Positions 2,792-50,579 are shown, numbered from the stretch's first letter. The stretch: 64,000 bases of DNA from Psammoneis japonica (GCA_008632985.1 QPGO01000006.1:679138-743137), one strand, 5' to 3'. Notes: generated by a model from the sequence alone, not told the origin. Made by a program: numbers and translations.

Positions 2792-3346
2792 GACGTGTTC
2801 CAGTCCCAGGTGACGCACAAAACGACAATCGGATTTTGAATATAATTTATGTATGTTTTAGTGTATAAAGCATTTTAATAAAAACACTTAGACGGATTGA
2901 CTTTTATAGGCTTCTAGAGTATGGACATTTAAATAGTTTTTTGAGGGGTATTCAAATCGTCATGGGATATGTATCATAAACTTCCTCAGTAGACTCAATA
3001 CTGATTGTACGTCAGTAGATTTATACTGAGATTTTTTTGTAGGTAGAAAACCTACCAAGTAGCATCGTAGAAAGATATATTTAGGTAACATCAAAATAAC
3101 GGCAATATTTTCGCCGAAAATCTTCCGTTGTGTTACGAATCTTTTAACGCAATGAAAAACATAGATAGCACAATAACAATGACATTGCAACACTCACACG
3201 AGTCTTGTTAGTGTTGCAAAACATTTATATTTGTATAAATCTATACTTTTGGTGGTGAAAGTTCGATCGTAAGTTAGGGACCGCGCAAAAATCGCGCAAA
3301 TGTCGTTTTTGTGCACGATTTGGTTCACGTGCGGCTGGAACACGTC
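2792..3346. mobile_element. 555-bp AT-rich non-autonomous DNA transposon (MITE-like) with imperfect TIRs and a 4-bp TSD
   Basis: Left end gacgtgttccagtcccaggtga; reverse complement of the right end gacgtgttccagccgcacgtga; a subterminal gcacaaaa(a)cgaca is also shared. tcct flanks both sides (2788-2791, 3347-3350). No coding capacity. Confidence 0.8.
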
Positions 3347-4200
3347 TCCTGCAATCTCCTCTGCTGCTGATTGTGCAGGTTTTCTGTCATCTTGGCATTG
3401 GTGGTGGTCTTAAAGCAAATGAGTGCCAAATGCAGTGCTTCTAACTCTTTGGAGTGAGTGTTGAAGCAGCAAGTCAATGTTGCCAAAAGGGAGTCGAACA
3501 AGATCTCCTGTGCCACTCAACGCACTTGCCTTCTTGGCAGCCTGTTGTGTGAACCATGCAGCTGTGATGACAGGTGTCTCTCAATGCTGTCTGACAATTT
3601 TGCAAACCAAACAATGATTCACTCCAAAAAGTGAGACCAAAACACACGCAGATGGTGCTGATCTCATCGCAGAAGGTCACATCAACCAACCACATCAGGG
3701 TCAACACATCTTTCTTTTCAACATGTCTGGGTCACACAACGCGTCATCTGGGTCTCACATCTTGGTGTTCCAACACAAGAAGTGACACACCCTTCATCCC
3801 AAGGGGAAATGTTCTTTTTTTCTTTGGCTGGAAAGCCAGCTCACAAAAGAGTGTTTTTGCATGAAGCCATGTGAGCTTTGACACTGCCGACAAAGCACAC
3901 AGCAAGTTGGTCACCGAGGTGCCACTGCCACTTGTTGCTCCTTGGCAGCTGGCCATTTGATCATCACCCAGTCCATTGTGAAGCATCATGTTGACACTGG
4001 CCCCACTTGTCAGGAGTCAAAGCAGGCAAACAAGAGGTCTTGATTTCCAAATTTGAGGCATTTTTGAAAATGCAAATGTCTCAAATTAAAAAACCCAGGA
4101 ATTTCTAAAAATCTGAAATGAATTGTTTTCAAAATGACGGTTTTTTTTTTAGCAAAAATGACAGCAGTGCAGCTGTCGTTCGCACTGCTCTTAGACGAAA
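3347..4200. repeat. TpA/CpG-depleted decayed repeat, family not recognised
   Basis: Same compositional signature as 1-2790. Ends near a small hairpin agcagtgc-N11-gcactgct at about 4163-4189. Confidence 0.55.
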
Positions 4201-4375: not shown

Positions 4376-7243
4376 CTACCAAAAATTATCCTCTTCTTCT
4401 TCCAAATCTGGTTCTAATAGTTGCGCAGCAGTCGGTGCTGGGTTCGCCTCATGCTGTCCCGGTTGGTCATGATCCAGTTCTACGAATTCGTCGTGCACAA
4501 AGGACCCAGGATGAAGCGACGATGATCTCATCGCCGGGAGGGAACTAGACAAAGAAGCACCCTCTACTGATTCCAGAATCGTATCCTGAGTCGAGTTTCT
4601 GCGAAAACGTGGCTTATCCGCAACACCCGCTATGTTCTTCTTGCCGTGGCAGCTCGTGCTAGTAGTACTACTAGTGCTTGTACTTTGGATGGAACCACAG
4701 ACAGCGAGCAATCGGAGTGGGAGTTTGATGAGTAGCATGTCCATAGCATTCCATAAAAAGAGGAGCCCAGTACATGCCGTCATGCCTGCAATCGTTATGG
4801 TCAAAAAGTGTTCAATCATCCGAAAACCGACCAACATTCCCACCGCCAACAACGTATTGGATCCAATGAGAATGGAGATGGAAATCCATCCTACCTTGAC
4901 GCGATCTTCGACTTGGTGGTTTGCTTCCTTGCTGTTCTTTGTAGTAGTCGTATTCATGGTAGCACCACTGCAACTCGAATCTTCGGATGATAATTCTTCT
5001 TTTGTTGCCGCCTCCTCCCCCGCCTGGTGGACTTGACGGTTGCCCCACGAAAGATCGGAAATGCGCGCGGTGGCGTAGGCAGGAAGCCACACATAAAACC
5101 AAAAGGCAGACAATAAGGCAAAGGGGAGCGTCAGGAATATAATCTTGGCCGATCGAAACCACTGGTAGCCATGATGGGTTTTTCTAGACAAAACGATGCC
5201 GCCCACGAATGCAGCAACATAGGGCGCCACCCCAAAGAAGATTAGAATTTTCAAAAACACGGGGAGACCGCCCCATCCCAACATGACGGCAGAAGCGATT
5301 GCGACACATTGCATATAGAGCGCTGTAGCAGTGTTCAGCACGACTGCCACCGCCCATGCAATGGGATTAAATGAAGAGAAAGCATCTCCATTCGTGGCTC
5401 GAATTGAACGGGGTCGATGTACGATGAGGAACAACGCATAGATTGCCAAATACGCCGCCACAACAACAGAAGCAATCCAATGCATATCGGAATCATCATC
5501 TTCGCCCTTGGCCACTTGTTGCAGGGCTGTCGAATTCGTGCTAACTATATAGGGTGTCACGAGAATGGCAACGCACAATCCAACCGCCACAGTGGCGGCA
5601 CCCACCAACCGTACCATCACTCCGCTCAGCAGCTCGAGCGCAAGATAGGTACGGACAATGCTTTTCTTCCACCAGCTTGATGTGACTCGGCGATCCAACC
5701 TTTGTCACTACCACTGGTGTGTCTGTCTTCGCTGCTGTTGTCGCTATGATGATGCTTCTTGCTCCCACAGAAGACCCAATACGACGCAAGGAAGGCTCCG
5801 TTGATCCAACGACGACGCTGTCTTACGAGACGCGCCATTGGTTTTTCAGCGTCATAATAGAAGCACGCATCGTGTACATAGGAGACATGTGGTTTCACGG
5901 AGTCAGATAAGCCCGGTAGGTCTTTGCACTCCTCCTCCGATCGAAACGTAAGAAGGACCGGTGGAAACCGATCTTCAGCCAGTTGTACATTTCCTAAGAT
6001 AATTCGATCCATCATGTTCTTGTGAACATTAGTATCGTCCAAGGATTGGTTGCACAAGTCAAAATAGTCTGACATGACATTGCGACGATGAGGGCTGATA
6101 TTGATATCATCAGCACTATCCTTGTCGCTGCTATTGCTACTACCACTTTGGTTGGTCATGGTATCATTATACTCGGTTGTGAGTCCAAGATGTGCTGTTC
6201 GATAGAGGCAACATGGACCCGGAAGGACAGTTAAAAAGCCCATCGATTCTTGTGCCGATCGCATGGTGGCTTGCGAGATCTGCAGACATACAAAATTGTT
6301 TGATCAGCAAGCAAGCGCAATGATGTGAGTTTTGGATGGAAATGAGACACACAACATTTGCCATAGCAGTACTACCTACCTCCATGTCGTAACGCTGGAT
6401 TTGTCGCAAGGCAAATGCCGATGGATCCGAGAAGGCCTCGCCAAATCGCGAAGAGCGGTTATCCCCTTGTTTTTCGGCCGACATGACACGCATGAAGCCG
6501 GTTAAGGCCGAAACAGATGGCACCTGATCCATACGTTCAATTAACAACCGTAAACAGTGGTGATCGAAAATGATTCCACAGTCTGTGGCCCAGGCAAATT
6601 CAGCCATGGGAGCATGGGCCTGCATCCACCACATATGTGAATTGATTTTACCCTGATTGTGCCGTTTGAGAATTAGCGACAAGTGGACTTGGCCATCCTC
6701 CATCTTTGTGCGACGATCGGAACGAATTGGAGAATGTACGGCTTCAGGAATCCTCACAATGAGCGTGTTGCAGCTGCTCGTTTCGGCGCCTTCTTGCTTG
6801 GTGAGAAAGCTGTCGTCTGGACAACTGTTTGAACCTGATCCAAGTTCCAGGTCGGCTGGATCTTGATCGCCTGGAAATACAATTTGAAATTTGTCTTGGA
6901 GAAAGGCTTTCATGCTTGGTGTAATCTGTTTAGTACCATCCATGACAATGCAAACCTCGAGAATAACGGCGGAGTCTTGCTGGCTGCTGAACTGCTGCCA
7001 GTACAACGATTGCAAGGTCCGATCCAATTCTTCGTATTCTTCATTGTAACAGCAGATACAAACTGACACTACTCGATTCATTGGCACTTGATCGTCGCAC
7101 AGACCACCGCTAAAGTACCCTTGCCCTGCAATCGGTGACATCTCGGACCATCTTTCGCATTCCAACGACAAAGCGAAAGGCCCATGCTCTTTGTCTTTCT
7201 CCCGAGTGTCGGCGTACGAGGTGTAGCTTAACTGGGAGCTCAT
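4376..7243 (-). CDS. Chitin synthase (GT2 family)
   Basis: Motifs in canonical order: CCYNEE, VMDG, KRHNQGKINSH, ATDCG, LTVLPGPCCLYR, LAEDR, QRRRW, followed by several TM segments. GT-AG intron 6379-6280 joins RYDME to ISQATMRSA. One frameshift near 5680 (GWIAESH / SWWKKSIV). Confidence 0.92.
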
Positions 7244-7933
7244 TGAGTGATCGATAAAGTGATATCGACTAAAACAATGATGAATGATGGCTCCCACTTT
7301 TCAAGATAGTATCTCGTCTTTTGTGCGTGTGCTTGTTTTGATGGTCCAGGGCGACTTTTACAATACCGTATTTATGTTTCGTATCCAATCATCAGGGATC
7401 TTTTGCAATTGTGAGGTTCAAAAAGCCGGAATTTGTGTTGTTGTGGGTGACGTGTTGAGGGTTTTACGAATAGATACTACTTAGACCACATCTTGGAACG
7501 GACAAAACAGTTATGTCTACTGAAACTCGTACTGTAAAAAACTTCACGACTACAGTACATAAAGTAGATAGAGATAGAGACGATGTCCGTCCAATGATGA
7601 ATAGTCATCCCCCCAGTAAAGTAAGTAGTATGCTGTATTTAGAGAAATCGCTCGGGCAGTCATTTGTTTGTGCTGGAATCCTTTTTTATTTATTTAAAGA
7701 GTGCGAACGTGAAAATACCGTAGTCATAATTATTTTCCGTTGTGTATAAGCTACGAAGGAATCACAGTATGCCCCGTAGAAGCCGTATGCGCGGCTACGA
7801 GCACCTTCATACCTCTCGAGCCGAAACAAGCAGCAGCAGGCTCATTCTTTACGTTCAACGTACTTTTTCTTTCCATCTTCAATCTTCACCCAATTGCAAG
7901 ACCCCCCCGCCCCCCGCGTGTTCAGTGGTCACG

Positions 7934-10477
7934 ATGACGACCAGCAACGAGGAAGAAACGGCTGGTAACGGCGATACCAAAGACGTGTGGAACGAAAACG
8001 ACACCAAGTGCCAAGAGCTTGAAGAGGGCGCCTGTAACATCAGCGATCCCAAGAATGATGTAAGTGACAAAAGTACCGGCAAGAAGCAGCCCTTTTCTAC
8101 TCGTCGGTTGTGCGTCGCTGCTGTAGCATTGGTGGCAGTCATATTGCTTTGCATTGGATTGGGTGTCGGACTGTCACGGGATGGAGGGAGTCAGGATGAA
8201 AGCCAAGCGACTGTCGACGACGATGTCTGCAAGCGCAATAACGATTTGACGTCCGTACCACCATTCAACGATGATTTTCCTCCCTCCACGACGTCGCCGA
8301 TTGAATTACAAAAAACGCCCATGTTGGTTTCGATCGGATTCGATGATAATGGTCGATCGAATGGGATGGAATGGGTAATCAATGAGCTGGCCAAGAAGTG
8401 GAATACCGCGACGTCTCCGCCGTTGCAGTTCACGTTCTTTCAGACCACCACGTATGCTACCGACGTGCATTACGAGGAACCCGTTAACGTACGTCGTGCG
8501 TGGAGAGCTGCCTATGAACAAGGACATGAAATAGCGCTCCACACTCACACACATCCACATGGTTCCGAGTTTTCTACGGATCAGTGGGGAGACGAGTTCA
8601 AAATGTGTCACGAGACACTCACCCGAAGCTGGGAGGAAGGAGGGCTCGGCGTGGACCCCAAGGATATTTTGGGGTGGCGAGCTCCCTACCTGGAATCGAA
8701 TGCAGAAATGTTTGAAGTACTCCATGAAAATGGTGTATGGTATGATAGTTCCATCTACGATGGATTTCAGCCAGAACAAGATGGACGCAGCCATCAGTTC
8801 CCTTACACTACAAACCATGGATCAAAGCCCGCCGGATTTCCTATTAACCGATCCGGAATCTGGGAATTACCGTTACATGCATTGATCATCCCCCCCGACG
8901 ATGTAGCGGAGAAATACAATTTTGTTCCGGGCCTGAGACAACGATCAGCAGCAGCCATAAAGGTCACGAGTTTAGGTGCGTTTACCGGTTCTAGCAACAA
9001 TGGATTGCTATGACACTATGCTCATTTTTTTTTCGTCACATATTCAATTCTCGTCTTCCAGACTGGAACTTTTTTGCCGAATACGCCATGACAGGGCCTG
9101 AATTTGTGGCTACGCTCAAATACAATCTGGATCTACGGCTTGAGGGCAATCGAGCACCGTTTGTGTTTGGGGCTCACTCGGAGTATTATGCCACCGACAT
9201 TCCAAAACTTTCCAGCGACGAGATGTTCTGCGGAAGTAGCTGGACCGACGCAAATACATGCAAGACCCCATGTCCGGGTGGAACCGATTCTGAATGTCCC
9301 GACGGAGAATCCTGCTTTGCAAGTATCACGGTGGGTGTGAACCCAGTTCCAATACATCTTTCTGTGGAACGAGCTGGGCCGACGCAAATACATGCAAGAC
9401 CCCATGTCCGGGTGGAACCGATTCTGAATGCCCCGACGGAGAATCCTGCTTTGCAGATGTCACGGTGGGGTGTGAACCCAGTTCCAATACACTTTCTGTG
9501 GAACGAGCTGGGCCGACGCAAATACATGCAAGACCCCATGTCAGGGTGGAACCGATTCTGAATGCCCCGACGGAGAATCCTGCTTTGCAGATGTCACGGT
9601 GGGGTGTGAACCCAGTTCCAATACACTTTTCTGTGGAACGAGCTGGGCCGACGCAAATACATGCAAGACCCCATGTCAGGGTGGAACCGATTCTGAATGC
9701 CCCGACGGAGAATCCTGCTTTGCAGATGTCACGGTGGGGTGTGAACCCAGTTCCAATACATCTTTCTGTGGAACGAGCTGGGCCGACGCAAATACATGCA
9801 AGACCCCATGTCCGGGTGGAACCGATTCTGAATGCCCCGACGGGGAATCCTGCTTTGCAGATGTCACGGTGGGGTGTGAACCCAGTTCCAATACACTTTT
9901 CTGTGGAACGAGCTGGGCCGACGCAAACACATGCAAGACCCCATGTCCGAGAGGAACCGATTCTGAATGTCCCGACGGAGAATCCTGCTTTGCAGATGTC
10001 ACGGTGGGGTGTGAACGTAGGCTCAATACATTTTTCTGTGGAACGAGCTGGGTCGACGCAAATACATGCAAGACCCCATGTCCGGGAGTAACCGATTCTG
10101 AATGCCCCGACGGAGAATCCTGCTTTTCAGACGTCACGGTGGGATGTGATCTCAGTTCCAATACATTTTTCTGTGGAACGAGCTGGGCGGACGCAAATAC
10201 ATGCAAGACCCCATGTCCGAGAGTAAGCGATTCTGAATGCCCCGACGGAGAATCCTGCTTTTCACATGTCACGGCGGGGTGCGGGAACGAACCCGATCCC
10301 CTATGTAGCAATGGCAGAGTTCGTGACGGAGTGTTCCCCTGTAGTACCGCAGAAGAGCGCCGTGCGGCGATGGAAGCGTTCCTTGCGTATGCACTCTCCA
10401 AGGAGGAGGTTCGAGTAGTTCCAATGAGAAGTGTTATGGACTGGATGCGCGATCCTGTTCCGCTCCAGTGTCTTTAA
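7934..10477 (+). CDS. Membrane-anchored polysaccharide (chitin-type, CE4/NodB-like) deacetylase with eight inserted Cys-rich modules
   Basis: N-terminal TM (LCVAAVALVAVILLCIGLGVGL). CE4 motifs IGFDD, HEIALHTHTH, GWRAPYL, WYDSS, IWELP, NRAPFVFGAH. Intron 8976-9061 gives KVTSLDWNFF. Single-base slips in the first repeats break the frame. Confidence 0.88.
9225..10285 (+). repeat. Coding tandem array, 8 x 135 bp (45 aa: FCGTSWADANTCKTPCPGGTDSECPDGESCFADVTVGCEPSSNT)
   Basis: Units recur at about 9225, 9360, 9494, 9629, 9764, 9899, 10034 and 10169. They are nearly identical, with six Cys per unit. Confidence 0.95.
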
Positions 10478-11099: not shown

Positions 11100-12928
11100 T
11101 TAGATGCGCGACATACACGACGAGCGCGAGAAGTCGGCACAAACACGTCGCTGACGAAACCAGCACCCTCATGTTGCACTGGTCATCTGGTCATTGTTTT
11201 CATTCTCATTGTCTCACTTGCATCTCCCACACTGTGGCTTCCTCTTGTCAAGAAGGCTGCCTTTTTTTAGAGGATTGCGATGCACAGGCCAATGTGTGTT
11301 TTTTGTATGGTGTGAGTGAGCTTGTGCAAATGAGCAAGAGACAAAATGGTTTCTGCAGAAAATTGACTGGCTTTGGTTGCTGCAGCCCCAGCACCCGACC
11401 CACCACTTCTGCACTGCACCCTCATTTTTGCCTCTACACCAAAGTCATGCTGGCAGCAGCAAAAAAATGAGAAACATCAGCAGCCAAGCTGTCTTGCACC
11501 TCTCCATTGCCATCATGCGGGAGCGTCTTCAGGGCAGAGTGTTGAGCTTCTAGATGCCACACTTGGCATTCTGTCAAACTGTGCCACCTCACAACATGAT
11601 TCAGAAATGCTGCTTGAAAAACACTCCATGGTGCTTGGATTTCATCTGCCAAAGACCTGCAGAGCAGCAAAAGACAAGAGGGAACAAGAGGAGCATGATG
11701 AACCATGCTGTCTTGCATTTTCATTGCTGCTCTGCTGCAGTGGCTGGCTTTCAAGGGTGTGGTGCTGAGTTTTTTGGCACTGTGTTTGGCACTCCGTCTT
11801 GTGTGTTGCCAACTCACATGCTTTAAAAAACAGGCTTTGCACCCCACTGTGGTTGAAAACCAAGAGTCAAGTGCCCAACCTTCATGGTCTTCTTTTTTTT
11901 CAGCAAAGCTCTGCCACCAGCCACTGAGTTTCCTCTTCATGCCAAGTCATTGTGTCATGGAAAAAGAACCACACAGAGAACAAACACCAGGTCTGCAGAG
12001 CAACATTTCCTGGTTGTTGCTGCTGCCAGGTGCAATCACAGCATGAGAAGGGGGGGTTGGGGGGGAGAGTCAGACTCAACTAAAAGGAGTGAATGCACTG
12101 ATGTTGTGCAGGAAAAGTCAAAAAAGCACACCTTGAAAGTGCACTTTAAGTGTGCTCAAGCATGTTTGTGACTCTTGCACAGTGTTCTGCGGGGTGCTGG
12201 TTCACAGGCATTTTGTGCCAGCACACTGCTGCACACAATCTACAGCATTGCCATGCATGATGGGCTGATGATTTGCGTGTGAACAAACATGCAGAATTTG
12301 TGCCACAACAGCTGTTGGTTGACTTGCACATGATGGCATTTTTCACAAATTTTCATGTCATGCATGTGACAGAGTCAAAAAGAAAAAAAATGCAGGTTGT
12401 GACAAAAGTGAAAACCAAAAAATGTCGTTGAGCTGTGCGTGGGGGGAGATTGGGGAAGACTGCAGCAGCTGAGGTCAGCACCTTGTCAAATCAACTTTGC
12501 ATTGCTGGGCAGCTCCCAGTTGGCTGTTTTCAACTTTTTTTGGGGAAATGCTCAATCGCCTTCATGGAAATGTGTGGAAAATGTGCCAAGAACCTCCAAC
12601 CTTGTCTTTGGGGGTGCTCTGTTTGCAATGAAATGGAGCCAAATGACAAGCTCCATCTAGAAAGTGGGCAAATCTGAGAGGGTTAAAATGGCAGAGAAAG
12701 ACACTGTGAGCCAGAGAAGGGCATTGCAAGAAGATTTGCAAATGTGCAGCACTGGGCACTGATCGACAAGACCAAACACCACAGGGCTGTGGTGTTTGGC
12801 ATCAAAGGTGCTCTCAGCCTGCCATTTTTGTTTGGGAGAGAGTTGGGCAGGTTGGTGTGAAAATGCAGAAAGGAGTTGGTGAAGTGTTGCTAAAAATGTG
12901 AGCCAAGCCAACAATGTTGAGACAACGC
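11100..12928. repeat. TpA/CpG-depleted decayed sequence; left part of the island into which the copia element inserted
   Basis: Compositional signature. Continues at 20043-20800 on the other side of the TSD. Confidence 0.6.
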
Positions 12929-13206
12929 TGACAGAAATTGAAGGCAAATGGCAAGAATCCAAACAATGACTCCTTGCTGCTGTCTAAATGGCAGATGAGT
13001 CTCCGCTCAGAGACGGTCACAGGAGCCAAAAGATGTGTGAGTCGGCACAATCGGGCTGCTGTTGTCATTCTTGTGAGCCGTGTGGCTCGAAAGCAAACTG
13101 CGTCGCGTGCGCACGCATGGAACTAAAGAGCACACAAAACTGTGCGCGGCAAACTAAACAGCGCGCGACATTTTGTGCGCACCCAAATCCTGTTCAAATC
13201 CTGTCA
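12929..13206 (-). repeat. 3' LTR (278 bp)
   Basis: Colinear with 19765-20042; TG...CA termini. Confidence 0.95.
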
Positions 13207-16200
13207 CTCCCCAGTTTGCTTGAAGAGTCACAGAAACAGATTCAACTTCGGATTGAATGGAGTTCCAAAACATGAGGGGACGGAGAAGGTCCCAGATTTG
13301 GGAGCAACCCCAATGCTTGCTGAGAATGTCAGCAGGGTTGCGGGAGCCTTCGATGAAGTGGAGCTCAAGGTGGCCAGAGGCAATCGCCTCGCGCACACGA
13401 TGGAATGAGAGAGCGGTGTGTCGCTTGTGTAACTTGGAGTGCGGGATGGTGGCACTGTCCACAACCAACTTGTTGTCACCGAACATGCAACTGATGTCAC
13501 GGATCAGGACGCCAAGGTGACGCAGGGCAATGTGCAGGTCGACAATCTGCTCAACACAAGTCCTTGCGGCAACAAATTCAGACCCGAAGGTCGCAATCTC
13601 CATGGTGGCTTGCTTCTTAGAGAACCAATCAGCTGGGAATTTGTTGAGGAAGTGGAGCATTCCCATGACAGAGCATCCGGTGAGCATGCAATGATGCAAG
13701 TTTGCATCGACGCAGTGGGTGGCAGTGACAAACTTGCCAAGGGGTGGTGGAGCATCCTTCAGGATCATCTCCTCTGCGTCGCCTCACACGGAATGCATCC
13801 ATTCATGGGCCGGTGCAGGGAGATCCAAACAGTCGGACTCTTCCGTGCGAACGCGGAGAGCGCCGTGTCGCATCTTGGAAAGGCACCCACAGATGCATTT
13901 GGCACGATCCAAGTGGCCTTGACGGGGCGCAGCTCGGAAGCCAGACAGTGACATGATGGCCATGGCAATGTCAATTCGGCCAAGAGACACTGCCCATTGG
14001 AGGGAACCAACAAGAGACTGGAGCTGTTGAATGCCACTGGGCTCTGGCAGTTTGGAAGTGTCCAGTTCGGGGTGGTCACCCTTTTCCAGAGGGGACAGGA
14101 TGTTGGTGGCAGGTTTCTCCCCAAACAGTCATGTGTGGCTGTCGACCATGCATTCAATGCACTTGCACGGAGACAGACACAAGGTGCCATCAGGATCACG
14201 GGAGAAGTCGCAGCCCAGATGGAACTCAATCAGTCCCGCACCCTTGAGCTTGAACTTGCACTTTTCCGTGAGGGTGTCGACGAAAGATTGAGGATCCTTC
14301 ATGGCAATGGTGAGGTCATCCACACAAACGGCAGCACATTCGCAGTGGTCGCCGTTCCTGCACACCCAAATGTCGGGTTCGGCACGGCAGGGGAAGAAAC
14401 CTTCAGCTCGCAGGCAGTCGGCGAAGCGCTCGTGCCAGCGGAGACCGGAGCTGCGCAGTCCACACAGGGCCTTGTAGATGACAAGAATGTGGCCTTCAAG
14501 TTTGCCAAATTCGGGTCCAGCTGCAATGCACAGCTTCTCCTTGGTGGTGGCTTCAAGGCAGGCATTGCCAATGTTGGTGGCCCATGTCTCCAACTCGTTG
14601 AGTTCGGCCAGGAAAATCATCAGCCGAAGGCCACGAAGAGAGACTGCTCTGCAGTGATCACTGTCGATGGGTGCATCCGTGAGGTGTCCATCGGCTGCGA
14701 GTCGTGCCTTGTGGCGGCCGTCGTGTTTCACGTCGTGCACTGGGTGCACTCCGATCTTCTTGTGTCCTGCAGGAGGAGTGGAAGACTCGGAGGGCCCGCA
14801 GTCATGAAAGACTTCGTATTCATCGAGTTGGTCCATCTCAAGATTGGTTGCGTCTCCCCATTTGCGGTTGCCATTGCGTTCGTCTAGGGACATGGCGTGT
14901 TTGCAGTTCCGGGGAACTTTGCATCCGCACTTGTGGCAAGGTGCAGTGTGGAAGGAGCGAAGCTTGGCTTGGTTGGCCATGCGGAATGGCTTCTTCTGGC
15001 ACCTCGCGATGGTGCGGAACCGCTTCCAGCCATCAGTGTCGAGAAGTCCTTTCTCTCGTGCACAGATGGCGCAGGTGACAGGGTCGTCCTTGGCGATGAT
15101 GGCAAGAGGCTCGGACGTGATCTCCCCACTTTCCCATTCAAGCATGATGTTGTAGCTTGAGCCTTTCCAGGTTGGGTCATGAGGCTTCAGAGGTCCTTCG
15201 TGTGACACAATGCGTCGAAATTTCCAAACAGCAGTGTCTTCGTCTTCTTGCTCAATGTGATTCATGATGTCGTTGCAGGCCAGGACTTCCTTGCATTCGT
15301 CGTTGTTGACAGAGCAGACGAACTTGGTGAGCTCGGGGTTGCCGTTCACTTTCCATTCGTGATCCTTGACAGCCTTGATGATGCGAGCTCTGTGGCATTG
15401 TCCGTCCTCTTGTGGCTGCATGAGGAAGGTGTGTCCAATGATGTCTTGCGGATCGAAAACTGGCATCTTGGGTGTCCTGATCTGCCCATCAGGTGAATCG
15501 ACGGGGTTGTCGTCATGGTGAGATTTGATGATGGGTTCAGGTGGCTCCCCATCAGGAGGATCAAGATGCAGGTTTTGAACGGAAGGATCGGTGGCAGCGG
15601 ATCGTACGTTGGACCGGCAGAGGATCTTCTGAGTGTCGTCAGAAAGAATCTTAAAAGTCATCTGGTGGCCGACATGTTCCGCAATGCCAACAAAGCATCC
15701 AAGCAACTCATGGGATTCAGATGGCCAATCGGAGTCATCAAGGTGGAAGAACATGGGTTCCCACCAGTGAAAGCGAAGCAATGGGCTGATGTTCGGGGTG
15801 GAGCCAGTGAGGGTCTCGAGGGGCATGCGCCAGTGGAGACATGGGGACGCTGTGTGGTTGAGCATGAAGCAAACATGCATGAGCGCCAGCAGCCATGTGT
15901 GGGCAGGCGAACCGAAATGGTCCATGATGGTGTTCGCCATGCACTTCATGGTCTGGTGTCGGCATTCGGCAAAGTTTTGGTGTTGCTGGTGAGGCTCGCT
16001 TTGCCAGCTGGAGATGAAGAGGGCTCGTAGAATCCCGAGCACCTTGTTGCTGATCTCAACTTGAGCACGGTCGCTGATGAGTTTGGGTGGAGCACCGCGC
16101 TCACGGATCTGATCCTCGAGTGTGTTGACAAACTCTTTGTCGGTTTTGGTGCCGCAGACATCAGTGACGGTAGACTCGGTGCCAACAAACAGTTGGGCGC

Positions 16201-18832
16201 TGGTGCAACCAGAGTCGACGGCCGGGGTGTCGGCACAAATGGTGTCAGTGGCGACAGGCTCGTTGCGGCGGTGCACATTCAGGGCGGGGTTGGGCGATTT
16301 GCAGGCCTTCTTAAGGTGCGCACCAGCGGGCATGCGGGCGCATTGCGTGGTGCAGTCAAAAGTGCGACGGACCGCATCGGCAGGTGGGAAGCCAAAGCAA
16401 GGCCGAAGAGACTCGTGGGGGGGTCCTTGGGCTGCACAGTGCGCTCCGGGGGCGGAACGTCGTCATCCTTGGGGTCAATCGCGTGTAGATGACACTCGTA
16501 GAACACGTCGTCGTTCGGAATGAGATGATCATCGAGGGCGGACGCGTGATCGGCAGACAAGGAAGCGGACATGATGGCCTCGTTGACAACGACACGATGA
16601 CGGCAGTTGCCGCATTCGTCAAATGGGTTGGCAGTGGGATCGTCCTGCAGGTCTGAGATCGCGTCGTGCCACTGATCGTCATCAGTGACAGAGTGATCGA
16701 GGATGGAAGGGTCCCATGTGTCATCACCGGGCAAGGATGACATGTGGCAGGGTGTCCCATTCGTCGTCAGTGTGGGGCCGCATGGCAACACAAGGCAGGC
16801 CACCCTTGATGTCAATTGGGATGACATGGCCATCAGGAGTGGCGACACACTGCAAGCCGTTGGGCACCTTGACAGAGCGATCATTGACATCGTGTTTGCA
16901 CCATTCGAGCTGGCCACAGGAATGAATGGTCTTGCCCTTTCCCGTGTGTGCGCACTGATGGAGGATGGCGATGACGGGACCACGCTGTGTCTCAATGATG
17001 GCACCAGCAGTGACAATGGGGATGTCCACCAATTGATGGTCGTCAATGCCCTGAACGTCGACTTGGCGAGCGGTGTGTGCAATGACGTGAACGTCATCGC
17101 CAGCAATGCCGCCATTGGCTCCACGATCGACTGGAGCACCAGTGCGTGTGGAGCGATGAGCGGAGGCAGAGCAAATGACATTGTGGTCATCAACGCGGCG
17201 GCAAGTGCGGCCATTGAGTTCTGTGTCATCTGGAGGAGCAGGCGAGGTGGAGGGAGTGGCGGATGGGCCCGGTCGACTGGCTTTGGGGGCTTGGTTAGGA
17301 GACAACAGGCATTGCAGATCACCGGGTGGCAGTGGCTTGCGCTTGGTGAGATGTGCCAGAATGGGATTGTCTGAAGTGGCACCCACATTTGGAGTGGGAT
17401 CACCATAGTTAGCAAGAGTCATGTTGGGCAAGTTGACATCACCGTCACTCCCAAGTCGTTGGTCGTGAAGGTTCACCGCAACAGACTCATGCCAGTTGCC
17501 AGCTCGTGGGTTGCGAGGAGGCGGACGAGAATGCTCGAGGATGATCGCCTTGGAGGAATTGGGCAACGAATCCCAAATCCGTTGGTGGTCGGGAGGGAGA
17601 TGTTTCCATTGGTCGCCAGTGAGGCTGGGACCGCGGGCGCAGGCAGCGTCAGCCTGAAGGACGTCAATGTCGCTGTCGATGTCATGGAACACATCATCGG
17701 ATGGTTCCTCAGAGTGGACGTTTTGTGCGCACATGGCGCAGCGGGGAGCTCGAGGTGTCGTCTTGGGTTGAAACGTGCTGTCGCATTGAGCCGCCGCGGA
17801 GAGGAGCAAGCCACAACATTGATCGCATGTGAGGCTCTTGCCACTCTGTGTGCAATGTTGATCAGCTTGGTTCTTGACGGTGCGGAGTTCCTTGACAGGA
17901 TGCACGGCATTCTCGAGCATGATGCGCTTCTGTCCTTCAGAGAAGTGGTCACTGGCTGGGATGAGTGCCTTGCACCTGCGCAACTGATCCTGCCAATGAA
18001 GTGTGAACCCGTGGGTCGGACCTTTCCAAGTGCCATCACCAAGGCGTGCAGTGGTGAGGTGCGTGAGCAAGGTGGAGGACTCGACAGATGCACGGGTGGA
18101 GGTGAGTGCATGCTCAGACAAGGCACGGTGGACGGTCTGGGCATCAGAAGACCCCACATTTTCACGAATGAGGGCTTTGCCCTTGTTGGTGAGAAGGATG
18201 CGTTCGAAGACGGCGAACATGCACTTTTGCTGTTCAGCAAAGAGCAGTTTGTCTTCGGGGGTGGTTGGTTTGTGCGACGAGTCTAAAATGCACTCGACGT
18301 CTTGGGCACGGGCTTGTGCCACAAGTGAGGTGTGCCAAGTGTGCCACTGCTTGTCGGATTTGAGGGCCGTGAAAGCAGTGGGGTCACGCTTGATGCCTCG
18401 CTTGAAGTCTCGCACTGGGTCGCGTGCCTTGGTTGGGTTGGTGACATGCGGAGGTGCAAGAGGTGAGCTGCCGACAGACACAGAAGACATGCAGTCGGGG
18501 CTGAGGCGGCAGGCAAGGAACTCATCGTGTGTGAACAACGAGGAGTCATTGGCAACATCAAGCCCTTTGTGTGCTTTGACAATGTGCAGACCAACTAGAG
18601 CTGCTAACATGTTCACATGACCTCGGGGCAATGGGACCACATTGGTGCTGTTGTCACACTCAAGTGAGTCGATTTGGGAAGGTGTGAATGTGAACAGTTC
18701 TTGGCACGAGTCTGTGCCGTCATGGGTCAAAGCCAAACGGAGAGGGCTTCCAGCACCTTGGGCAAGCACAGTTCCAACAACATGCTCGAAACCATCAGTT
18801 TGTTGCTGACGAGTGAGAACCATGGCAGACAA
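13207..18832 (-). pseudogene. Degenerate gag-pol polyprotein (gag, protease, integrase, chromo-like segment, RT, RNase H)
   Basis: FKRGIKRD (gag), VDRGANGGIAG (PR), VATDT...SEPHQQHQNFAE (IN), DVKHDGRHKARL, KALCGL, AVCVDD (RT), DANL...ATFGSEF...NPADILSK (RH). Frameshifts and Tyr->Cys/His changes throughout. Confidence 0.93.
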
Positions 18833-19764
18833 AAGACGGCATCAGGACAAGCGATTTTGTCAGGACGCGGAGGCAGACTTGAAACTTGAGTGGAAATGGA
18901 CTTGGCTTGAAATGGACTTGACTTGAAATCTTCAACTGTCTTGAAATCAGAAGTTGCCAGGTTGTGCTGTCCCGTTCGTTGTCAAGTGCTAAACTTCCCA
19001 TCCGGTCTGTAGAGTTGTGCCGGCACGTCCGAACCCGCAGCCAGCGGCACTTGGGGTTGCTTGCGAGCGGAGTGGCGGGTTGTAAACCCCTGCAGGTGAG
19101 CTGACTGGAGGTGGACAAAACCCCCGAACCGTTCTTGTTTTATGTCGGTTGGATTTCCCGATCAGGCTGGCCAGTTGGCGCAGGCATCAGGCGCTGTGGA
19201 CGAACGAACAAATGTGGGAAAAACACCCTCGCCCCAACGCAGGCTGCAATCGCGGCTGCTTGCTCTCACAGTCATCCTCATGGACCCAGCAGAACTGCAG
19301 AGCACCAGCAGTCCGGGGCAGATCAGGTGCAATGGACTCGGTGTGCTTGTAGAGTGGTGGCAAAGCCGCAGTCCAAAGAGTGGGTTCAAGTTCTTGGCCG
19401 TGAAGACACACACACACATGTGTCTTCAGCGACAAAGATCTTGGAATGTGTGGGGTTCTTGACCGTTAACCGTTGAATGGGTGTGTCAAGGGATGAGGAT
19501 CAAGGACAGACTTGGACACAACCGTTGAATGTACGTCTTCAGCGACAAAAGGCAGTGTGATCAATCCAGACATCCAGCGGCAAGGAGACTTGACGGTGAC
19601 GTTAAATTCCTGCTGATGCCTGGTGTTGAATGCGCGCAGACTTGCCGATGTACGTAGAATGTGTGTGTGCAAAGGTCCATGCAGAATTGAAGTGGCATCG
19701 TCGGTAAATCAACGACGACGATGGCGGTTGCTCAATGGGTTGACAATGAGCAAGACTGTTAATC

Positions 19765-20042
19765 TGACAGAAATTGAAGGCAAATGGCAAGAATTCAAAC
19801 AATGACTCCTTGCTGCTGTCTAAACAGCAGATGAGTCTCCGCTCAGAGACCATTGCAGGAGCCGAAAGACGTGCAAGTTGGTGCAATCGGGCTGCTGTTG
19901 TTGTTCTTGTGAGCCGTGTGGCTCGAAAGCAAACTGCATCGCGCGCGCACGTGCGGAACTAAAGAGAACACAAAACTGTGCGCGGCAAACTAAACAGCGC
20001 GAGACATTTCGCGCGCACCCAAATCCTGTTCAAATCCTGTCA
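19765..20042 (-). repeat. 5' LTR (278 bp)
   Basis: Colinear with 12929-13206. On the minus strand it is followed by the candidate PBS gattaacagtc. Confidence 0.95.
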
Positions 20043-20254
20043 AACGCAGTGCATCACTCTGATGCTGCTGTTCTGTGGAACAACAATTTTCAGCAAATGA
20101 AGCTCCTCCCTGGCTTGTTTCTGCTCTGGGTCAACTGCAATGACACAATTTTTTCAAATCTGAAAATGGAGAAGCTTGTCACAAGTTTTTGTGGGCTGCT
20201 TGGCCCATTTTTTGTGGCGCCAAAGAGGCATCAAAACACAGCTGTCAGCATGCT

Positions 20255-20775
20255 GGCCATGGGCTGAAGAACAGAAGATGACCATGAGATGGGTCTTGTG
20301 TTTTGATGTTGTCATGTTGTCTCTCTTGGTGTCGAGAAAGGGCCCAAATCTCTCCGTCGTGCTCCCCAGCTGCTGCGAGTCTTTTGAGCCCTGCATGTGA
20401 CCCACACTTGACTCAAAAATTTTGGAAGAGCTGGCTGGACTTTGACCCCCACCAGAGCCACAAAAATGCACAAGATTTGGGCTTTCTCAGTCTCCCATTG
20501 TCCAAACCAGCATCTTGTGAAAGCGCAGTCTGCGAGTGCATTGTTCGTGGCATGGGGGGCATCTGACCCCCGCCCATCTGAGGGAGCCAACTTTTTGCTG
20601 AGCATCTTTGTCACATGAGAAGGCATGAGGGATGAATTTTAGTGACAGCTCTGCAACTAACGCGACCCTGTGCTTGCGACCCCAAAGTTGTTTTGGGAAC
20701 TTGGCACTGGCATGATGTCAGTCGGTTGATGTGTGCATTTTGTTGAAAACGGGGGGTTTGGTGAGTGCGGAACGG
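20255..20775 (+). repeat. Dispersed repeat, copy 1 (homologous to 52785-53215)
   Basis: Shared blocks such as atgggtcttgtg, ggtgtcgagaa, actttga-cccc-c-agagccacaaaa, aactaacgc, cttgcgac and gcatgatgt-agtcgg. Confidence 0.85.
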
Positions 20776-20968
20776 GGTTGGGCCTCATAGCAGCGTCGCC
20801 AAAACAGGAGCGTCGTCGGGCGGACAACCGCGCAGAAAAAAAATAAAGCGATAACACATCATAACACACAAGATAGACACGAGGCAAGGATGATGACACT
20901 TCCTTTCCCGCGCTACACCTGTTGTTGTCACTTCCCCGGAATGGACCAAGAGCTTGTCGTCATCTACA

Positions 20969-34420: not shown

Positions 34421-35897
34421 ATGCGTTTACCTACTATTGTTAGCGTTTGTCTCTCGATCCGTTTCTTGTGGAGCGTTGTTCACGCTCAATCGGTAACCAC
34501 CGTCGCTGTCTTCTTTCCGTTTGAGTCCTTTGACGTTCATGAAACATGCTACTCATGTGAAGACAGTCGAGATGAATGTCTTGAGTGGGCCAACGCCGGT
34601 TACTGTGAAGACTATGCGTACTACATGATTAAGAATTGCCGGCGGAGTTGTCATGCGTGTGAGAATGAAACAGAGTGAGTCATGCCTCGTACTGCGTCAT
34701 TGTTTAGCCTGAATGCACACACCATAATCTCACACATTGAAAAACTTTCGCGATGAGAAAGTTTTGAATTCGACATTGGAGCACCGCAAATACTTCATGA
34801 CTTTGAGTATGGTGACGAAGAGTTCACCGAGGATCTCCTGGATCTCTACGAAGAATCAGAAGAACACCTGAGGGCAGTAGCAAGAAATCCCATGATCCGA
34901 TTTGTTTTGCCATTGTGTAAGAATCTTGAAGAAGAATGCACATACTGGGCATTGTCAGGACGGTGTGATGAGGACGAATACTACATGCAAACCCACTGTT
35001 GCCCAGCCTGCCAAGCTGCTGGTCAATTGGCGTTTTTATCAAGATGCCCAATGGATCCTGATGAGCCCAACGCATGGGAATCTGGTGATCTTGACGACCT
35101 TTTTGAGAAAATTACAACAATGGAGGAATTCAAAGTGTTCCAGCCTCGTATTCATTCGCGGCCAACATTCCTCCCTGGGGACACTCGACGGACTGCAGGC
35201 TACACGCTGGGTCCATGGGTTGTAACATTGGAGGAATTCCTGTCTCAAGAAGAAACGGATCATCTTATCAAGTTGGCGGAAGAGACGGGCCTTGAGCGGA
35301 GCCTTGACGGTGGCGAGATGCGTCCCGATGGTACATCCGAAGCAGTCGAAATCGAAGGACGCACTTCCATGCAAACGTACTGCGAAGACGATTGCTACGA
35401 GGATCCGATAATGCAAAATGTTACCGATCGCATCACCTGGATGACCAACATTCCTGAAGAAAACGCAGATTACTTCCAGATGCTGCGATACCGTGTTGGC
35501 GAACGCTATCACACGCATCACGATTACCATAGCTACCAAATGTACACAGCATCAGGGGTACGTATGCTGACGGTCTACATATATCTCAATGATGTGGAGA
35601 TGGGAGGTGGGACGAATTTCCCGGGATTGGATATAACGATACAGCCAAAGCGAGGGAAAGCTTTATTATGGCCTAACGTCTTGAACGAAGACCCAGATAA
35701 AATTGACGAACGGCTACATCATGAAGGTGAGAGCTTAAAGACTTTCCTAGCGACCTTTCTTCCTGTCATTTTGATGTGCTAACGTGTGTGTGTGTCGTCC
35801 AGCACTTCCCGTAATCAAGGGATGTAAGTACGGGATAAACCTCTGGCTGCATCGACGAGGATTTAAGGCGCCCGCTGAGTTTGGCTGTGCGGAATAG
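34421..35897 (+). CDS. Prolyl 4-hydroxylase-like 2OG-Fe(II) dioxygenase with ShK domains, copy 1 (two introns)
   Basis: Signal peptide, two ShK-like CxxWAxxGxC modules, GRTS, HTHHDY, YLNDVEMGGGTNF, HE-ALPV..KY. Introns at about 34675-34761 and 35727-35802. Confidence 0.9.
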
Positions 35898-36314
35898 TTA
35901 ACCTGCTAGTTGCAATATTACAGCTAGCTAGACTACGTAATCGTGCTTCGATCTTCCCATACAAACCTGCCTGTTGGGAATGCGATCTTAGGTACTCAGC
36001 AACGCAACTTCAACTTTCGATTTCTCTCCACCTCAACGTCTTCCCTGTTTTCATTAGAATGCAGGGAGGCGAGAATGGGAGAATTGGAAATGTTGATGGG
36101 ACTGCTACATAAAGCCGTGGTCGCGGTTCACGATAGAAACCAGAATACATTATTTTTGTACTTGAATAACAAATACATGGCGCTAGAAAGCACTCCACAA
36201 ATCTCTTTCAAACGCAATTCGCCTCATCACATTTCTCCCTGACACCCTTACCCCCCTTCCCATGCCTTTCATCAACAAATCACGCTGCAAAAGCAACCAC
36301 AACAGCGGTTTCCC

Positions 36315-37640
36315 ATGTTGCATTCACGATCATCATCACTACTACTTGTGCTTTCGACTGCTCTGAGCTTGGCTCAAGCACAAGTTTGTTCGCGCCATCC
36401 AATCTTCTTTCCCAAGGAAGAGTTCGACATTCATGAAACGTGCTACTCATGCGAGGACCACTTCAAAGACGAGTGTATTGATTGGGCTTCAGTTGGCCAC
36501 TGCGAGAAAAGCCCTCACTTTATGATTAAAAATTGTCGGAGGAGTTGCCACGCCTGTGAGAACGAAAGTTTCGAGTTCGATCTAGGCGTGCCGCAGGTAC
36601 TCAAACTAAAAGGTATGCTTGATGAAGATGACAAAGAGTTCGAAGAAGAATTGATGGAAATTTACAATGACTCTCAGAAGCACTTACGAGCCGCAGCTAG
36701 AAATCCTGATATTCGGCATTTGTTGCCCAAATGCAAGAATAAGTACGAGGAGTGCACGGTTTGGGCAGCCGAAGGAGACTGCGACGAAAAGGAGTACTTT
36801 ATGAACACGAACTGCTGCCCGGCCTGTCAAGCGACTGGGCAGCTTGAGTTTCTTTTGAGATGCCCCATGAATCCTGATGAGCCGAGTGCATGGGAGCCAG
36901 GAGATGTGAACAGGTTCTTTGAACGGTTGACAACTCTGAAAGATTTCAAAAAGTACAAGCCTCAAGTCCATTCACGCCCGAAATACCTTCCCGGCGACAA
37001 GCCAAGCTCGACGACCTATCAGGATGGACCGTGGGTTGTTACCTTGGAGGAGTTCTTGACCGAAGATGAGACGGAGCGTCTCATTGAACTGGCTGAAGAA
37101 GAAGGACTTGAGAGGAGCCTTGACGGCGGAGAGATGCGTCCAGATGGCACTGCGGACGCCGTGGAGATTGAAGGACGCACCTCAATGCAGACTTACTGTG
37201 ATAGCGATTGCTTTCATGATCCAGTAGTACAAAACGTGACGGAACGCCTCACTAATTTGACACTCATTCCAGAAGATAATGGCGATTACCTCCAAATGCT
37301 GAGATACCGAGAGGGAGAACGTTATCACACGCATCATGATTATCATAGCTACCAAATGTACACGGCGTCAGGAGTTAGGATGTTGACAATCTATATGTAC
37401 CTGAATGATGTTGAGGAGGGAGGCGGGACACGTTTTCCTGATTTGAACATTACCGTAACGCCTAAACGAGGAAAAGCCCTAATTTGGCCAAGCGTGCTAG
37501 ACGACGATCCGGACTTGGAAGATGAACGACTCAGTCATGAAGCACTTCCAGTAATCAAGGGAATTAAGTACGGAACGAATTTGTGGTTCCACCAGCGGGA
37601 CTTCAAGACTCCAGCCGAGTACGGTTGCGCAGAAGACTGA
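36315..37640 (+). CDS. Prolyl 4-hydroxylase-like dioxygenase with ShK domains, copy 2 (intronless)
   Basis: Intact 441-aa ORF with the same architecture and long blocks identical to copy 1. Confidence 0.93.
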   Translation: MLHSRSSSLLLVLSTALSLAQAQVCSRHPIFFPKEEFDIHETCYSCEDHFKDECIDWASVGHCEKSPHFMIKNCRRSCHACENESFEFDLGVPQVLKLKGMLDEDDKEFEEELMEIYNDSQKHLRAAARNPDIRHLLPKCKNKYEECTVWAAEGDCDEKEYFMNTNCCPACQATGQLEFLLRCPMNPDEPSAWEPGDVNRFFERLTTLKDFKKYKPQVHSRPKYLPGDKPSSTTYQDGPWVVTLEEFLTEDETERLIELAEEEGLERSLDGGEMRPDGTADAVEIEGRTSMQTYCDSDCFHDPVVQNVTERLTNLTLIPEDNGDYLQMLRYREGERYHTHHDYHSYQMYTASGVRMLTIYMYLNDVEEGGGTRFPDLNITVTPKRGKALIWPSVLDDDPDLEDERLSHEALPVIKGIKYGTNLWFHQRDFKTPAEYGCAED

Positions 37641-47550: not shown

Positions 47551-47790
47551 TCAAAAGGGCGGGAAAATGGAACATTGAAGTTGTACAGGTCTGCATTAAA
47601 AAATTTCTTAGCTCTTCCTGATCGATCCCGCCGATTTCAGATTTGGCTTTGGAATTGGATTTCAGATGGTTTCAGATTGCCGACAAGTTGGGTGCACCAC
47701 ATATTCATGGCATTGGTCGAGCTGACTGTGTCCTGTGCAGCGATCACAACACGGCCCGACAAGGTGACAAGGGAATCATCGTCGTACACC

Positions 47791-49284: not shown

Positions 49285-50579
49285 GAGATGAAACTTTCCT
49301 CAATCCGTGATGAGGCGCACGAGTATTACTTGCATCTCTTGTCAATCATGTAGTCACACGATAAGGCCAAAATTATCGACACAATATGTTCTTTGCCTCT
49401 TGCAACGCGGAGCAATTTATGTGGCCAGTCTCTCGAGATAAGACACATGAAAAGAAGGAGTAACATGTGAACCACATACACTACTCTGTATCCTTGCGTA
49501 CTTCGACAGACCCTCTTTTGTGGATGCTCTTAGTGTCCGACTAATCTTTTAAAACAGGGGCTTCTCAGAAGCGTGACCCATCGTGACCACCCCACCACAT
49601 GTGCTCAAAAGAAATTGCACAAGCCCAATTTTGTGAATGAGTCTGTGAATTCTGTCATCAACAACACAGAGAGCAACATGACACTGTGTGCGCATCCAGC
49701 TGAAAGCCCCCCCCTCCCCCCAAAAAACAAAATTGCATCAGTTGTTGCAGCCGACAAACTGGTTGACCCACGCTGGCATTTTGAACAGTGGTGGCATCTT
49801 GGAGGTTGCACAAGCTGACAAATTTGGCAAAAAGAGGCATTTGGGCTGGGAATGCACACATGTCATCTGCAACAGCAACATTTTTGTCGCCAGACAGGCA
49901 ACCTCCTGACATGATGTTTCTCTTGCTGTGCACACGACTCATGCAATGCATGACAGCACCTCACTGTGACCACATGCTCTGCCTTGAAAGTTGATCATGT
50001 TGAATGATCATTGCTCCTGGAGACCAAAGCAGCATTGTGCCAAAGTTGTAAAATGGAGCCATGATCGAGCGGCGGAGCAGGCGGCAGTCAGCAAAAAAAG
50101 TCATTCAGACGAACCCACCCTGCATGGCTTTCTCATCACAGCAATCTTTGCTCTCCTCATGCCCACTGTGGCACCAGCAAACCACTGCAATGACACAAAA
50201 TGTAACTGCATGGAAGGGCAAGAGGAGAGAGCAACCAACAAAGCATTGCTGACAAGCGCCAGTGGCTGTCATCGTCGTCTGCAGTGATGAGTGTTTTTCA
50301 CCTGCTGTGAACTGCAGATGTGCTGCAATTTGGCTGCAGTGGTTGAGTTGGGGGCACTCCCAACATGGGAGGTTGAGTTGAGAACAAAGTGGCTTCCATT
50401 TTCCATTTTGAAGCTTTGCCAAGGAGGAGCTTCTCTTGAGGCAAGAGTCGTCCAGAACAGAGGAGAGCTGTGTGTCTCAGAGATTGCCGCCCACATGTCC
50501 TCACACCCTCTCATGCTTGCAGCTGTTTCTGTCTCACAAAATTCAACCAAGAAAAACAAAAACAGCAACAACAATCAAA

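Follow-up and report, generated by a model that had tools for sequence, protein, structure and literature searches.

What removes almost every tyrosine from a retrotransposon and still leaves long open reading frames behind? The question is raised by a copia element (element 1, minus strand) in a stretch of 64,000 nucleotides of the Psammoneis japonica genome (GCA_008632985.1, QPGO01000006.1:679138-743137), hereafter the window. The original prediction, made for positions 13207-18832, was that Tyr had been erased from this element, that conserved Tyr positions read Cys or His, and that the cause was a loss of the dinucleotide TpA after insertion, on both strands, which probably crippled the reverse transcriptase (RT) without creating stops. 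We found that TA is lost almost to saturation, with sharp boundaries, from two unrelated copia elements and from further blocks of the window, while host genes lie in DNA with normal TA content. This is probably the result of an A:T-to-G:C hypermutation, specific to TpA, that acts in place on integrated transposons, with ordinary CpG decay alongside.

Conserved tyrosines of element 1 are replaced by cysteine and histidine

The 777-aa frame of element 1 that encodes RT and a putative integrase was aligned with 24 relatives (44-61% identity), in which Tyr makes up 2.2-5.0% of the residues. There are 21 columns at which 17 or more of the 24 relatives have Tyr, and here element 1 reads Cys 12 times, His five times, Phe twice and Tyr twice; conserved Tyr thus reads Cys or His in 17 of the 21 strongly conserved columns. 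The other classes of conserved residue are kept in 68-100% of their columns, apart from Met, kept in one of two (50%, from only two columns). Extending the count to columns with Tyr in at least 12 relatives gives 17 Cys and 7 His. YVDD and LYGL, described in the original prediction as near-invariant, each have their Tyr in 23 of the 24 relatives. All of the motifs quoted there are found in the translations (AVCVDD, KALCGL, IGNACLEA, CAICARE, KCGCKVPRNCKHA, VHDVKHDG, LRHLGV, SCMFGDN and HWGCSQIW), but VHDVKHDG is not clean evidence because the consensus of the relatives at its column is Phe, not Tyr. The open reading frames (ORFs) of 702 aa with one Tyr and 734 aa with three Tyr that were reported earlier correspond to our 705- and 777-aa frames, counted from the start codon.

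Since the relatives carry TAY where element 1 has TGY or CAY, the direction of change is from TA to TG or CA, in agreement with the earlier proposal. On the sense strand, Tyr to Cys is an A>G change (17 columns) and Tyr to His a T>C change (7 columns), so both strands have been hit. The excess of Cys over His is weak (binomial p = 0.064) and is reversed in a metagenome contig described below (L060); it is not a stable feature. By the genetic code, a change from TA to TG or CA cannot yield an in-frame TAA, TAG or TGA, which bears out the claim that no stops are created. Conserved Arg has also changed, in 7 of 31 columns (three to Cys and four to His), as would be expected from the decay of CpG.

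Element 1 is a complete Ty1/copia retrotransposon on the minus strand, with two long terminal repeats (LTRs), and it is now dead. Its parts are listed here (ORFs were called with the standard code from stop to stop, minus strand).

12924-12928, minus strand: target-site duplication GCGTT, downstream copy; the 3' LTR flank reads GCGTTGTC...
12929-13206, minus strand: 3' LTR, 278 bp, with the same TG...CA-type ends as the 5' LTR
13207-13212, minus strand: putative polypurine tract GGGGAG, read from the sequence, directly upstream of the 3' LTR and abutting it
13154-14128, minus strand: rest of pol (C-terminal part of RT and RNase H region), in the same frame as the 777-aa ORF, with a second TGA at 13784-13786
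14129-16462, minus strand: ORF for RT and a putative integrase, 777 aa, 3 Tyr, ending at an in-frame TGA
16416-16733, minus strand: stretch between two frameshifts, marked by a change of tblastn frame, which divides gag-protease from pol
16724-18841, minus strand: gag-protease ORF, 705 aa, 1 Tyr; tblastn matches of relatives P0003 and P0019 cover 16736-17698
19765-20042, minus strand: 5' LTR, 278 bp, with ends TGACAG...CTGTCA, a direct repeat of 12929-13206
20043-20047, minus strand: target-site duplication GCGTT, upstream copy; the 5' LTR flank reads ...ACTGCGTT

The two LTRs are in direct orientation and 91% identical, and the 5-bp target duplication is perfect on both sides. A copia-type RT is detected in the 777-aa ORF (Pfam RVT_2, E = 6.4e-17; 62.4 bits, cut-off 31.6). 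Homology to the corresponding part of the relatives extends over about 560 residues ahead of RVT_2, and no integrase Pfam model matches at E <= 0.01; the gag-protease ORF (16724-18841) has no Pfam match. A single tblastn high-scoring segment pair of relative P0001 spans pol from 16423 to 13265, and the last 209 aa of pol (ORF 13154-13783) hold no Tyr at all. Among the best 120 relatives, whose identity reaches 61%, the few with an organism name are diatoms (Fistulifera solaris, Nitzschia sp.), apart from two bins of metagenomes that are labelled as bacterial. The copy is non-functional because pol carries two in-frame TGA stops (14129-14131 and 13784-13786) and there are two frameshifts (near 16733 and 16416). 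The loss of Tyr would probably have crippled RT, as the original prediction had it, in a copy that is dead in any case.

TA is depleted in sharply bounded blocks of the window

Over positions 13207-18832 the observed/expected ratio (o/e) is 0.07 for TA, 0.75 for CG, 1.42 for TG and 1.73 for CA. AA (1.02), AT (1.07) and TT (1.05) show that the depletion is restricted to TA, and the TA o/e of element 1 overall is 0.07-0.10. Six blocks, together 26.3 of the 64 kb, have a TA o/e of 0.04-0.13, compared with 0.57 in the remaining 37.7 kb; four of the six are without a recognisable protein domain. The edges of the blocks are sharp to tens of bases (11114 to 11268, 20788 to 20844, 42887 to 42926 and 60215 to 60336). 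The summed o/e of the four pyrimidine-purine dinucleotides is 3.97 in element 1, 3.77-4.11 in the blocks and 3.94 in host DNA, a constancy that a conversion of TA and CG into TG and CA within the class would predict. The stop triplets counted on both strands of element 1 are 26 TAA, 26 TAG and 302 TGA. With TAA and TAG nearly gone, long frames are open in all six frames, and 33 ORFs of at least 100 aa are found in the 8 kb between 12000 and 20000. The depleted features outside element 1 are the following.

1-2800, no strand assigned: block with neither TA nor CG (TA o/e 0.04, CG 0.07, CA 2.22, TG 1.79)
3301-4200, no strand assigned: TA-depleted block (TA o/e 0.09, CG 0.37)
11201-12928, no strand assigned: flank of element 1 depleted in TA and CG, probably the relic of an old transposable element, at single-copy read depth (55-111)
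20043-20800, no strand assigned: TA-depleted flank of element 1, of which 20282-20566 is 70% identical to 52813-53069
42901-47465, no strand assigned: block depleted in TA and CG that holds an old duplicated pair (43122-43856 and 45417-46188)
49501-53500, no strand assigned: TA-depleted block (TA o/e 0.13, CG 0.60)
60201-63900, minus strand: a second copia element (element 2), unrelated to element 1 (TA o/e 0.11, CG 0.80)

Two ORFs of block 1-2800 were compared with Pfam and neither had a match. Between two nearly TA-free blocks there is an island of 435 bp (2841-3275) with 51 TA as well as CpGs; its surroundings have no TA in 1466-2840 and two in 3276-4086, and its edges are sharp to a few bases. 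The island may have been inserted later, or it may be host DNA that escaped the change. The repeat shared by the flank of element 1 (20282-20566) and the block at 49.5-53.5 kb (52813-53069) is 257-285 bp long and 70-76% identical, and its two copies show two direct differences of TA versus TG or CA.

The TAs that survive favour YTAR contexts (3.7-fold for CTAA/TTAG and 4.0-fold for TTAA) and are scarce in RTAY; some of them may be new, made from the abundant CA and TG. A flank rule that required a purine 5' of T>C changes and a pyrimidine 3' of A>G changes was not supported: three His follow a purine and four a pyrimidine, and the corresponding counts for Cys are 8 and 9.

A second copia element has lost TA while keeping CpG

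Element 2 is identified as copia by RVT_2 (E = 9.1e-29, 60672-62030) and by gag_pre-integrs (62894-63802), and it shares merely 22-23% identity with the relatives of element 1. The RT motifs read HVDD and LCGPKQ in its translation. At 11 columns with conserved Tyr among 60 relatives, element 2 has Cys six times, His four times, Trp once and Tyr never, and it keeps 15 of 16 conserved Arg. The loss of all conserved Tyr, with 15 of 16 Arg and a CG o/e of 0.80 retained, indicates that TA loss outruns CpG loss. Both TA and CG are gone only from the oldest-looking blocks, where CG o/e falls to 0.07; elements 1 and 2 keep CG at 0.75 and 0.80. CpG decay alone was also considered as the cause of the TA loss and is rejected, as it cannot remove TA.

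Sister LTRs and other copies point mainly to change after integration

The sister LTRs of a retrotransposon are identical at integration. Those of element 1 differ at 25 of 278 columns: there are 8 single changes of CG versus CA or TG, 6 dinucleotides discordant between the LTRs (CA opposite TG), a single TG/CC site, and just 3 of the 278 columns with a difference of neither CG nor TA type. The pair shares 13 CG and 3 TA, all three of the latter in TTTAG, and neither LTR has a private TA. A CA/TG discordance may descend either from an ancestral CG or from an ancestral TA. If all CpGs decay at a single rate, taken from the 13 intact and 8 single sites, CpG decay alone predicts 0.6-2.2 discordances (2.7 in an all-category fit) versus the six seen, and a CpG-only origin is rejected (G = 7.46, p = 0.006). 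The observed number would be matched by about 10 ancestral TAs if each LTR had lost all of them independently. The excess of discordances is suggestive of change after integration.

Other copies of the element were compared through contigs at least 85% alike from four sequencing runs. The summed contig depth is 33,763-169,150 over element 1 and 55-158 over its flanks (a sum of depths, not a copy number), and since the depth over the element is far above that of the flanks, the family is highly repeated. Some of the changes are confined to single copies. At codon 776, where 22 of the 24 relatives have Tyr, element 1 reads CAC, and the other copies read TGC at about 70% of the depth and TAC at 14% or more. 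Position 17249 has TG in element 1 and TA in all other copies, and TA is kept by a minority of the other copies at 19546, 19559 and 13519. These states were drawn from 40 of 585 variable places. The LTR discordances, together with the copy-specific states at codon 776 and 17249, give indirect support to the earlier claim that the loss followed insertion.

The first of the two stops and both frameshifts of element 1 are absent from some or most of the other copies. In place of the stop at 14129-14131, 73% of other-copy depth reads CGA, owing to a G at 14131; 74% of that depth is without the extra base of the frameshift at 16733, and 42% carries the extra A after 16416.

The old duplicate at 43122-43856 and 45417-46188 has 31 CA/TG discordances in 704 aligned bases, compared with 3 in two host paralogues that have diverged to a similar degree. 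Its two copies are direct repeats of 72% identity over the 704 aligned bases, inside a block poor in TA and CG, and they may once have been the LTRs of an element, now decayed, of only about 2.3 kb. The flanks of element 1 are at single-copy depth and are also depleted; targeting therefore need not depend on repetition.

The same signature is found in sequences from other sources

We collected 80 loci of relatives of element 1 from public metagenome contigs by means of search patterns that do not contain Tyr. The TA o/e over the matched region is 0.35-1.02 in 79 of the 80 loci, so that the value of 0.07 in element 1 is far outside the family range. In locus L060 the ratio is 0.01, with 3 TA in 2766 bp (1-2766), and one frame is open over 872 aa; opposite the Tyr of relative P0001 it has His 13 times, Cys 7 times, Phe 9 times and Tyr once. 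Two further loci are about half-way (L042, TA o/e 0.35; L065, 0.38) and keep 14 Tyr each, and the control locus L001 keeps Tyr at 31 sites. The database protein P0035 shows Cys 6, His 7, Phe 3 and Tyr 2 at such positions, with Arg intact, and the protein P0074 has the same pattern of Tyr loss in partial form. A search of metagenome contigs for close relatives of P0035 gave 67 pattern matches, none of which was confirmed. The occurrence of one signature in metagenome contigs and database proteins, in graded states, argues against an artefact of a single assembly.

Proposed mechanism and alternative explanations

We consider it probable that integrated transposons are subject to in-place hypermutation from A:T to G:C at TpA, beside ordinary CpG decay. 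Such a process would rewrite element 1 and every other transposon or relic in the window, acting on either strand of the integrated chromosomal copy and turning TA into TG or CA until few remained. Codons TAY for Tyr would become TGY (Cys) or CAY (His), and TAA and TAG would vanish from all six frames with no new in-frame stops, while methylated CpG would decay to TG or CA in parallel, more slowly. By analogy, the preferred chemistry would be the deamination of adenine to hypoxanthine in TpA context, as proposed in a preprint on the chlorarachniophyte Bigelowiella natans (Mettrop et al., bioRxiv 10.64898/2026.01.13.699255). The data from LTRs and other copies lead us to infer that the bulk of the TA loss occurred in place after integration, and the hypermutation may be a defence of the host genome.

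Several observations weigh against this explanation. The timing is deduced throughout from end states. A class of very fast CpG sites could yield the same six discordant LTR sites, and the four runs used for the copy comparison are all from one sample, possibly the source of the assembly itself. With 40 of 585 variable places in view, TA loss common to all copies possibly predates this insertion. Flanks at single-copy depth are depleted as well, the Cys:His ratio differs between copies (17:7 in element 1 and 7:13 in L060), and the surviving TAs are enriched in YTAR, yet the simple flank rule built on that context failed. Finally, many copies seem to be alike in their poverty of TA: transitions in either direction number 85-149 places each, so that copies retaining TA could hardly be in the majority.

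This last observation would be expected if an adenosine deaminase acted before integration, on the RNA, cDNA or RNA:DNA hybrid of the retrotransposon, and the edited copies were then integrated, perhaps through the proteins of intact elements. Both of the targets that could be classified are retroelements, and the weak sense-strand bias of element 1 (17 Cys to 7 His, p = 0.064) is in the direction of such editing; but both strands are hit, and the bias of L060 is the opposite. In B. natans, according to the preprint, the signature arises in place, in integrated DNA viruses that are single-copy. Editing before integration also fails to account for the six CA/TG discordances between LTRs that start out identical, or for the equal depletion of single-copy-depth flanks and of blocks without a recognisable retroelement. 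Runs tests found no strand-coordinated clusters of Cys and His (P = 0.11 for the window, 0.78 for L060, 1.0 for L042 and 0.71 for L065). We therefore regard editing before integration as unlikely. Only a little less plausible is a modification of thymine, in which the T of TpA in silenced DNA would be oxidised, for instance to 5-hydroxymethyl- or 5-formyluracil, the latter of which mispairs with G. The in-place signature would be identical, since A>G on one strand cannot be told from T>C on the other by sequence alone, and 5-hydroxymethyluracil is reported to silence transposons in dinoflagellates (PMC11572971). Nothing in the window itself bears on this idea. Its 2-oxoglutarate (2OG)-Fe(II) oxygenase genes match the superfamily profile PF13640, and their products are probably prolyl-hydroxylase-like and not TET/JBP-like.

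Two other explanations would leave the hypermutation of integrated transposons without a role. In the first, TA would be present in the real DNA and modified bases of transposons would have been miscalled, or an error introduced by polishing. Diatom transposons are indeed described as methylated (PMC5124317), and the sequencing runs are without a recorded library type. Nevertheless, the TA-poor flank is recovered in k-mer contigs from run X1 (up to 315 kb), which over 1752 bases depart from it by 3 letters and 2 gaps, the signature recurs in three unrelated contigs from metagenomes and in two database proteins of different origin, intermediate states exist, and the Bigelowiella case was measured with Illumina reads according to the preprint; an artefact is thus very improbable. 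Slightly more improbable still is that TA is avoided by selection or through composition in a lineage that still functions, for example to escape a TA-cutting nuclease or through a shift in codon usage. The persistence of long open frames is what such a lineage would show, but these frames are open in all six frames, which the loss of TAA and TAG explains. In addition, the Tyr of the catalytic motif, present in 23 of 24 relatives, is replaced, the copy has two stops and two frameshifts, non-coding LTRs and relics are depleted as well, and other copies have different states at the same site. Hypermutation at TpA in integrated DNA thus remains the explanation that we prefer.

Host genes and other features of the window

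The host genes of the window are in TA-normal DNA and encode a chitin synthase fragment, a polysaccharide deacetylase, a short-chain dehydrogenase, a kinase, 2OG oxygenases and the E1 component of 2-oxoglutarate dehydrogenase. The last of these is 80-82% identical to proteins of diatoms (Grammatophora, Bacillariaceae, Cylindrotheca) and 61% identical to that of a bolidophyte, which identifies the genome as that of a diatom. The chitin synthase fragment and the polysaccharide deacetylase (6170-7300 and 7730-9010) are neighbours on opposite strands. Three genes are assigned to the PF13640 2OG-Fe(II) oxygenases (34757-35779, 36243-37637 and 47479-49281); the first two share 69% DNA identity, the second also has a ShK domain, and the third adjoins a TA-free block. 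A tandem array at 9226-10281, with a period of 135 bp and about 8 copies that are 86-94% identical, is in TA-normal DNA and is open in several frames on both strands.

Implications and comparison with known systems

If our explanation is true, the TpA hypermutation described in 2026 is no oddity of one chlorarachniophyte strain; it also shapes the transposon load of diatoms, a major group of phytoplankton, in which it runs to saturation. Diatoms would then offer a second and genetically tractable lineage in which to find the enzyme and the targeting signal. There are also consequences for annotation. TA-free relics (11201-20800 and the other blocks) have long ORFs in six frames with TGA as nearly the sole stop, and gene predictors probably call Cys/His-rich proteins without Tyr from them; Tyr-poor, Cys/His-rich 'proteins' in metagenome catalogues would be recognisable as products of such relics. 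Furthermore, the age of a transposon would be overestimated from LTR divergence unless sites derived from TA and CG are removed, given that only 3 of the 25 differences in element 1 are of other kinds.

Repeat-induced point mutation (RIP) of fungi resembles the process proposed here: it, too, inactivates transposons by mutating them in place, affects both strands, prefers certain dinucleotides and keeps sharply to the targeted DNA. RIP is described as a change of C:G to T:A, mostly at CpA, that creates TpA and stop codons (PMC2621366). The direction in the window is the opposite, with TpA and stops removed (TA 0.07, CA 1.73, TG 1.42), and RIP is rejected as the cause since its defining C:G-to-T:A change with a rise in TpA is not what is seen.

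The editing of retroelements by APOBEC or ADAR enzymes (for example PMC4866542) is similar in being a transition hypermutation of deaminase type that affects LTR retroelements, and ADAR is stated to prefer a 5' U (bioRxiv 10.64898/2026.01.13.699255). Such editing affects one strand of a replication intermediate, whereas here both strands are affected, sister LTRs differ at six CA/TG sites, and relics that are not retroelements are included. One-strand editing that leaves identical LTRs was accordingly rejected: both Cys and His are produced, and the LTRs differ.

CpG is given as the main methylated context in diatoms (PMC5124317), and the decay of methylated CpG to TG or CA that is known from diatom transposons is clearly present in the window. 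Unlike that decay, the TA loss is complete where most CpG remains (element 2, CG o/e 0.80). Literature searches, and term look-ups in PMC2806351, PMC5124317 and bioRxiv 10.1101/2025.10.24.684338, returned no report of TpA loss in diatom transposons.

The closest parallel is B. natans. As described in the preprint (bioRxiv 10.64898/2026.01.13.699255), mutation-accumulation lines of this alga have two regions of integrated viral DNA in which the mutation rate exceeds the background about 1000-fold, and 230 of 231 mutations in these regions are A>G or T>C, those all at TpA, in only some of the lines. The preprint also lists 324 coding sequences with low TpA, enriched in reverse-transcriptase and DDE domains, and its authors propose that an ADAT2-like DNA adenine deaminase serves as a defence against foreign DNA; its available text makes no mention of diatoms or retrotransposons. 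There are clear differences between the two cases. The host here is a diatom (a stramenopile) and theirs a rhizarian; the targets here are LTR retrotransposons and relics, and theirs an insert of a giant virus or virophage; the depletion is near saturation here (o/e 0.04-0.13), compared with a Rho of 0.45 in their viral region; and strong CpG decay coexists with the TA loss here, in a pattern known from end states of the sequence, whereas theirs comes from a measured rate.

The two cases have in common a near-exclusive change of A>G or T>C at TpA, which gives TpG or CpA depending on the strand and is deduced from end states in the window. They also share a confinement to foreign or selfish DNA, seen here in the host genes that lie in TA-normal DNA, and a clustered long-term depletion of TpA with a gain of CpA and TpG. 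The TpA-erasing pattern in this diatom is probably a further case of a very recently described kind of process that had been reported once, in an unrelated alga. Judged by this analogy, the window would hold the same kind of process as in B. natans, carried to saturation in diatom LTR retrotransposons. We would go further only tentatively, to a targeted defence of diatoms that rewrites TpA in integrated transposons to TpG or CpA until Tyr codons, TAA and TAG are gone, mirrors the chemistry of RIP, is the same system as that of Bigelowiella, is old and widespread among stramenopiles, alveolates and Rhizaria, and explains the cryptic ORFs of repeat-rich diatom genomes; we hold this broader view to be possible, with the odds somewhat against it.

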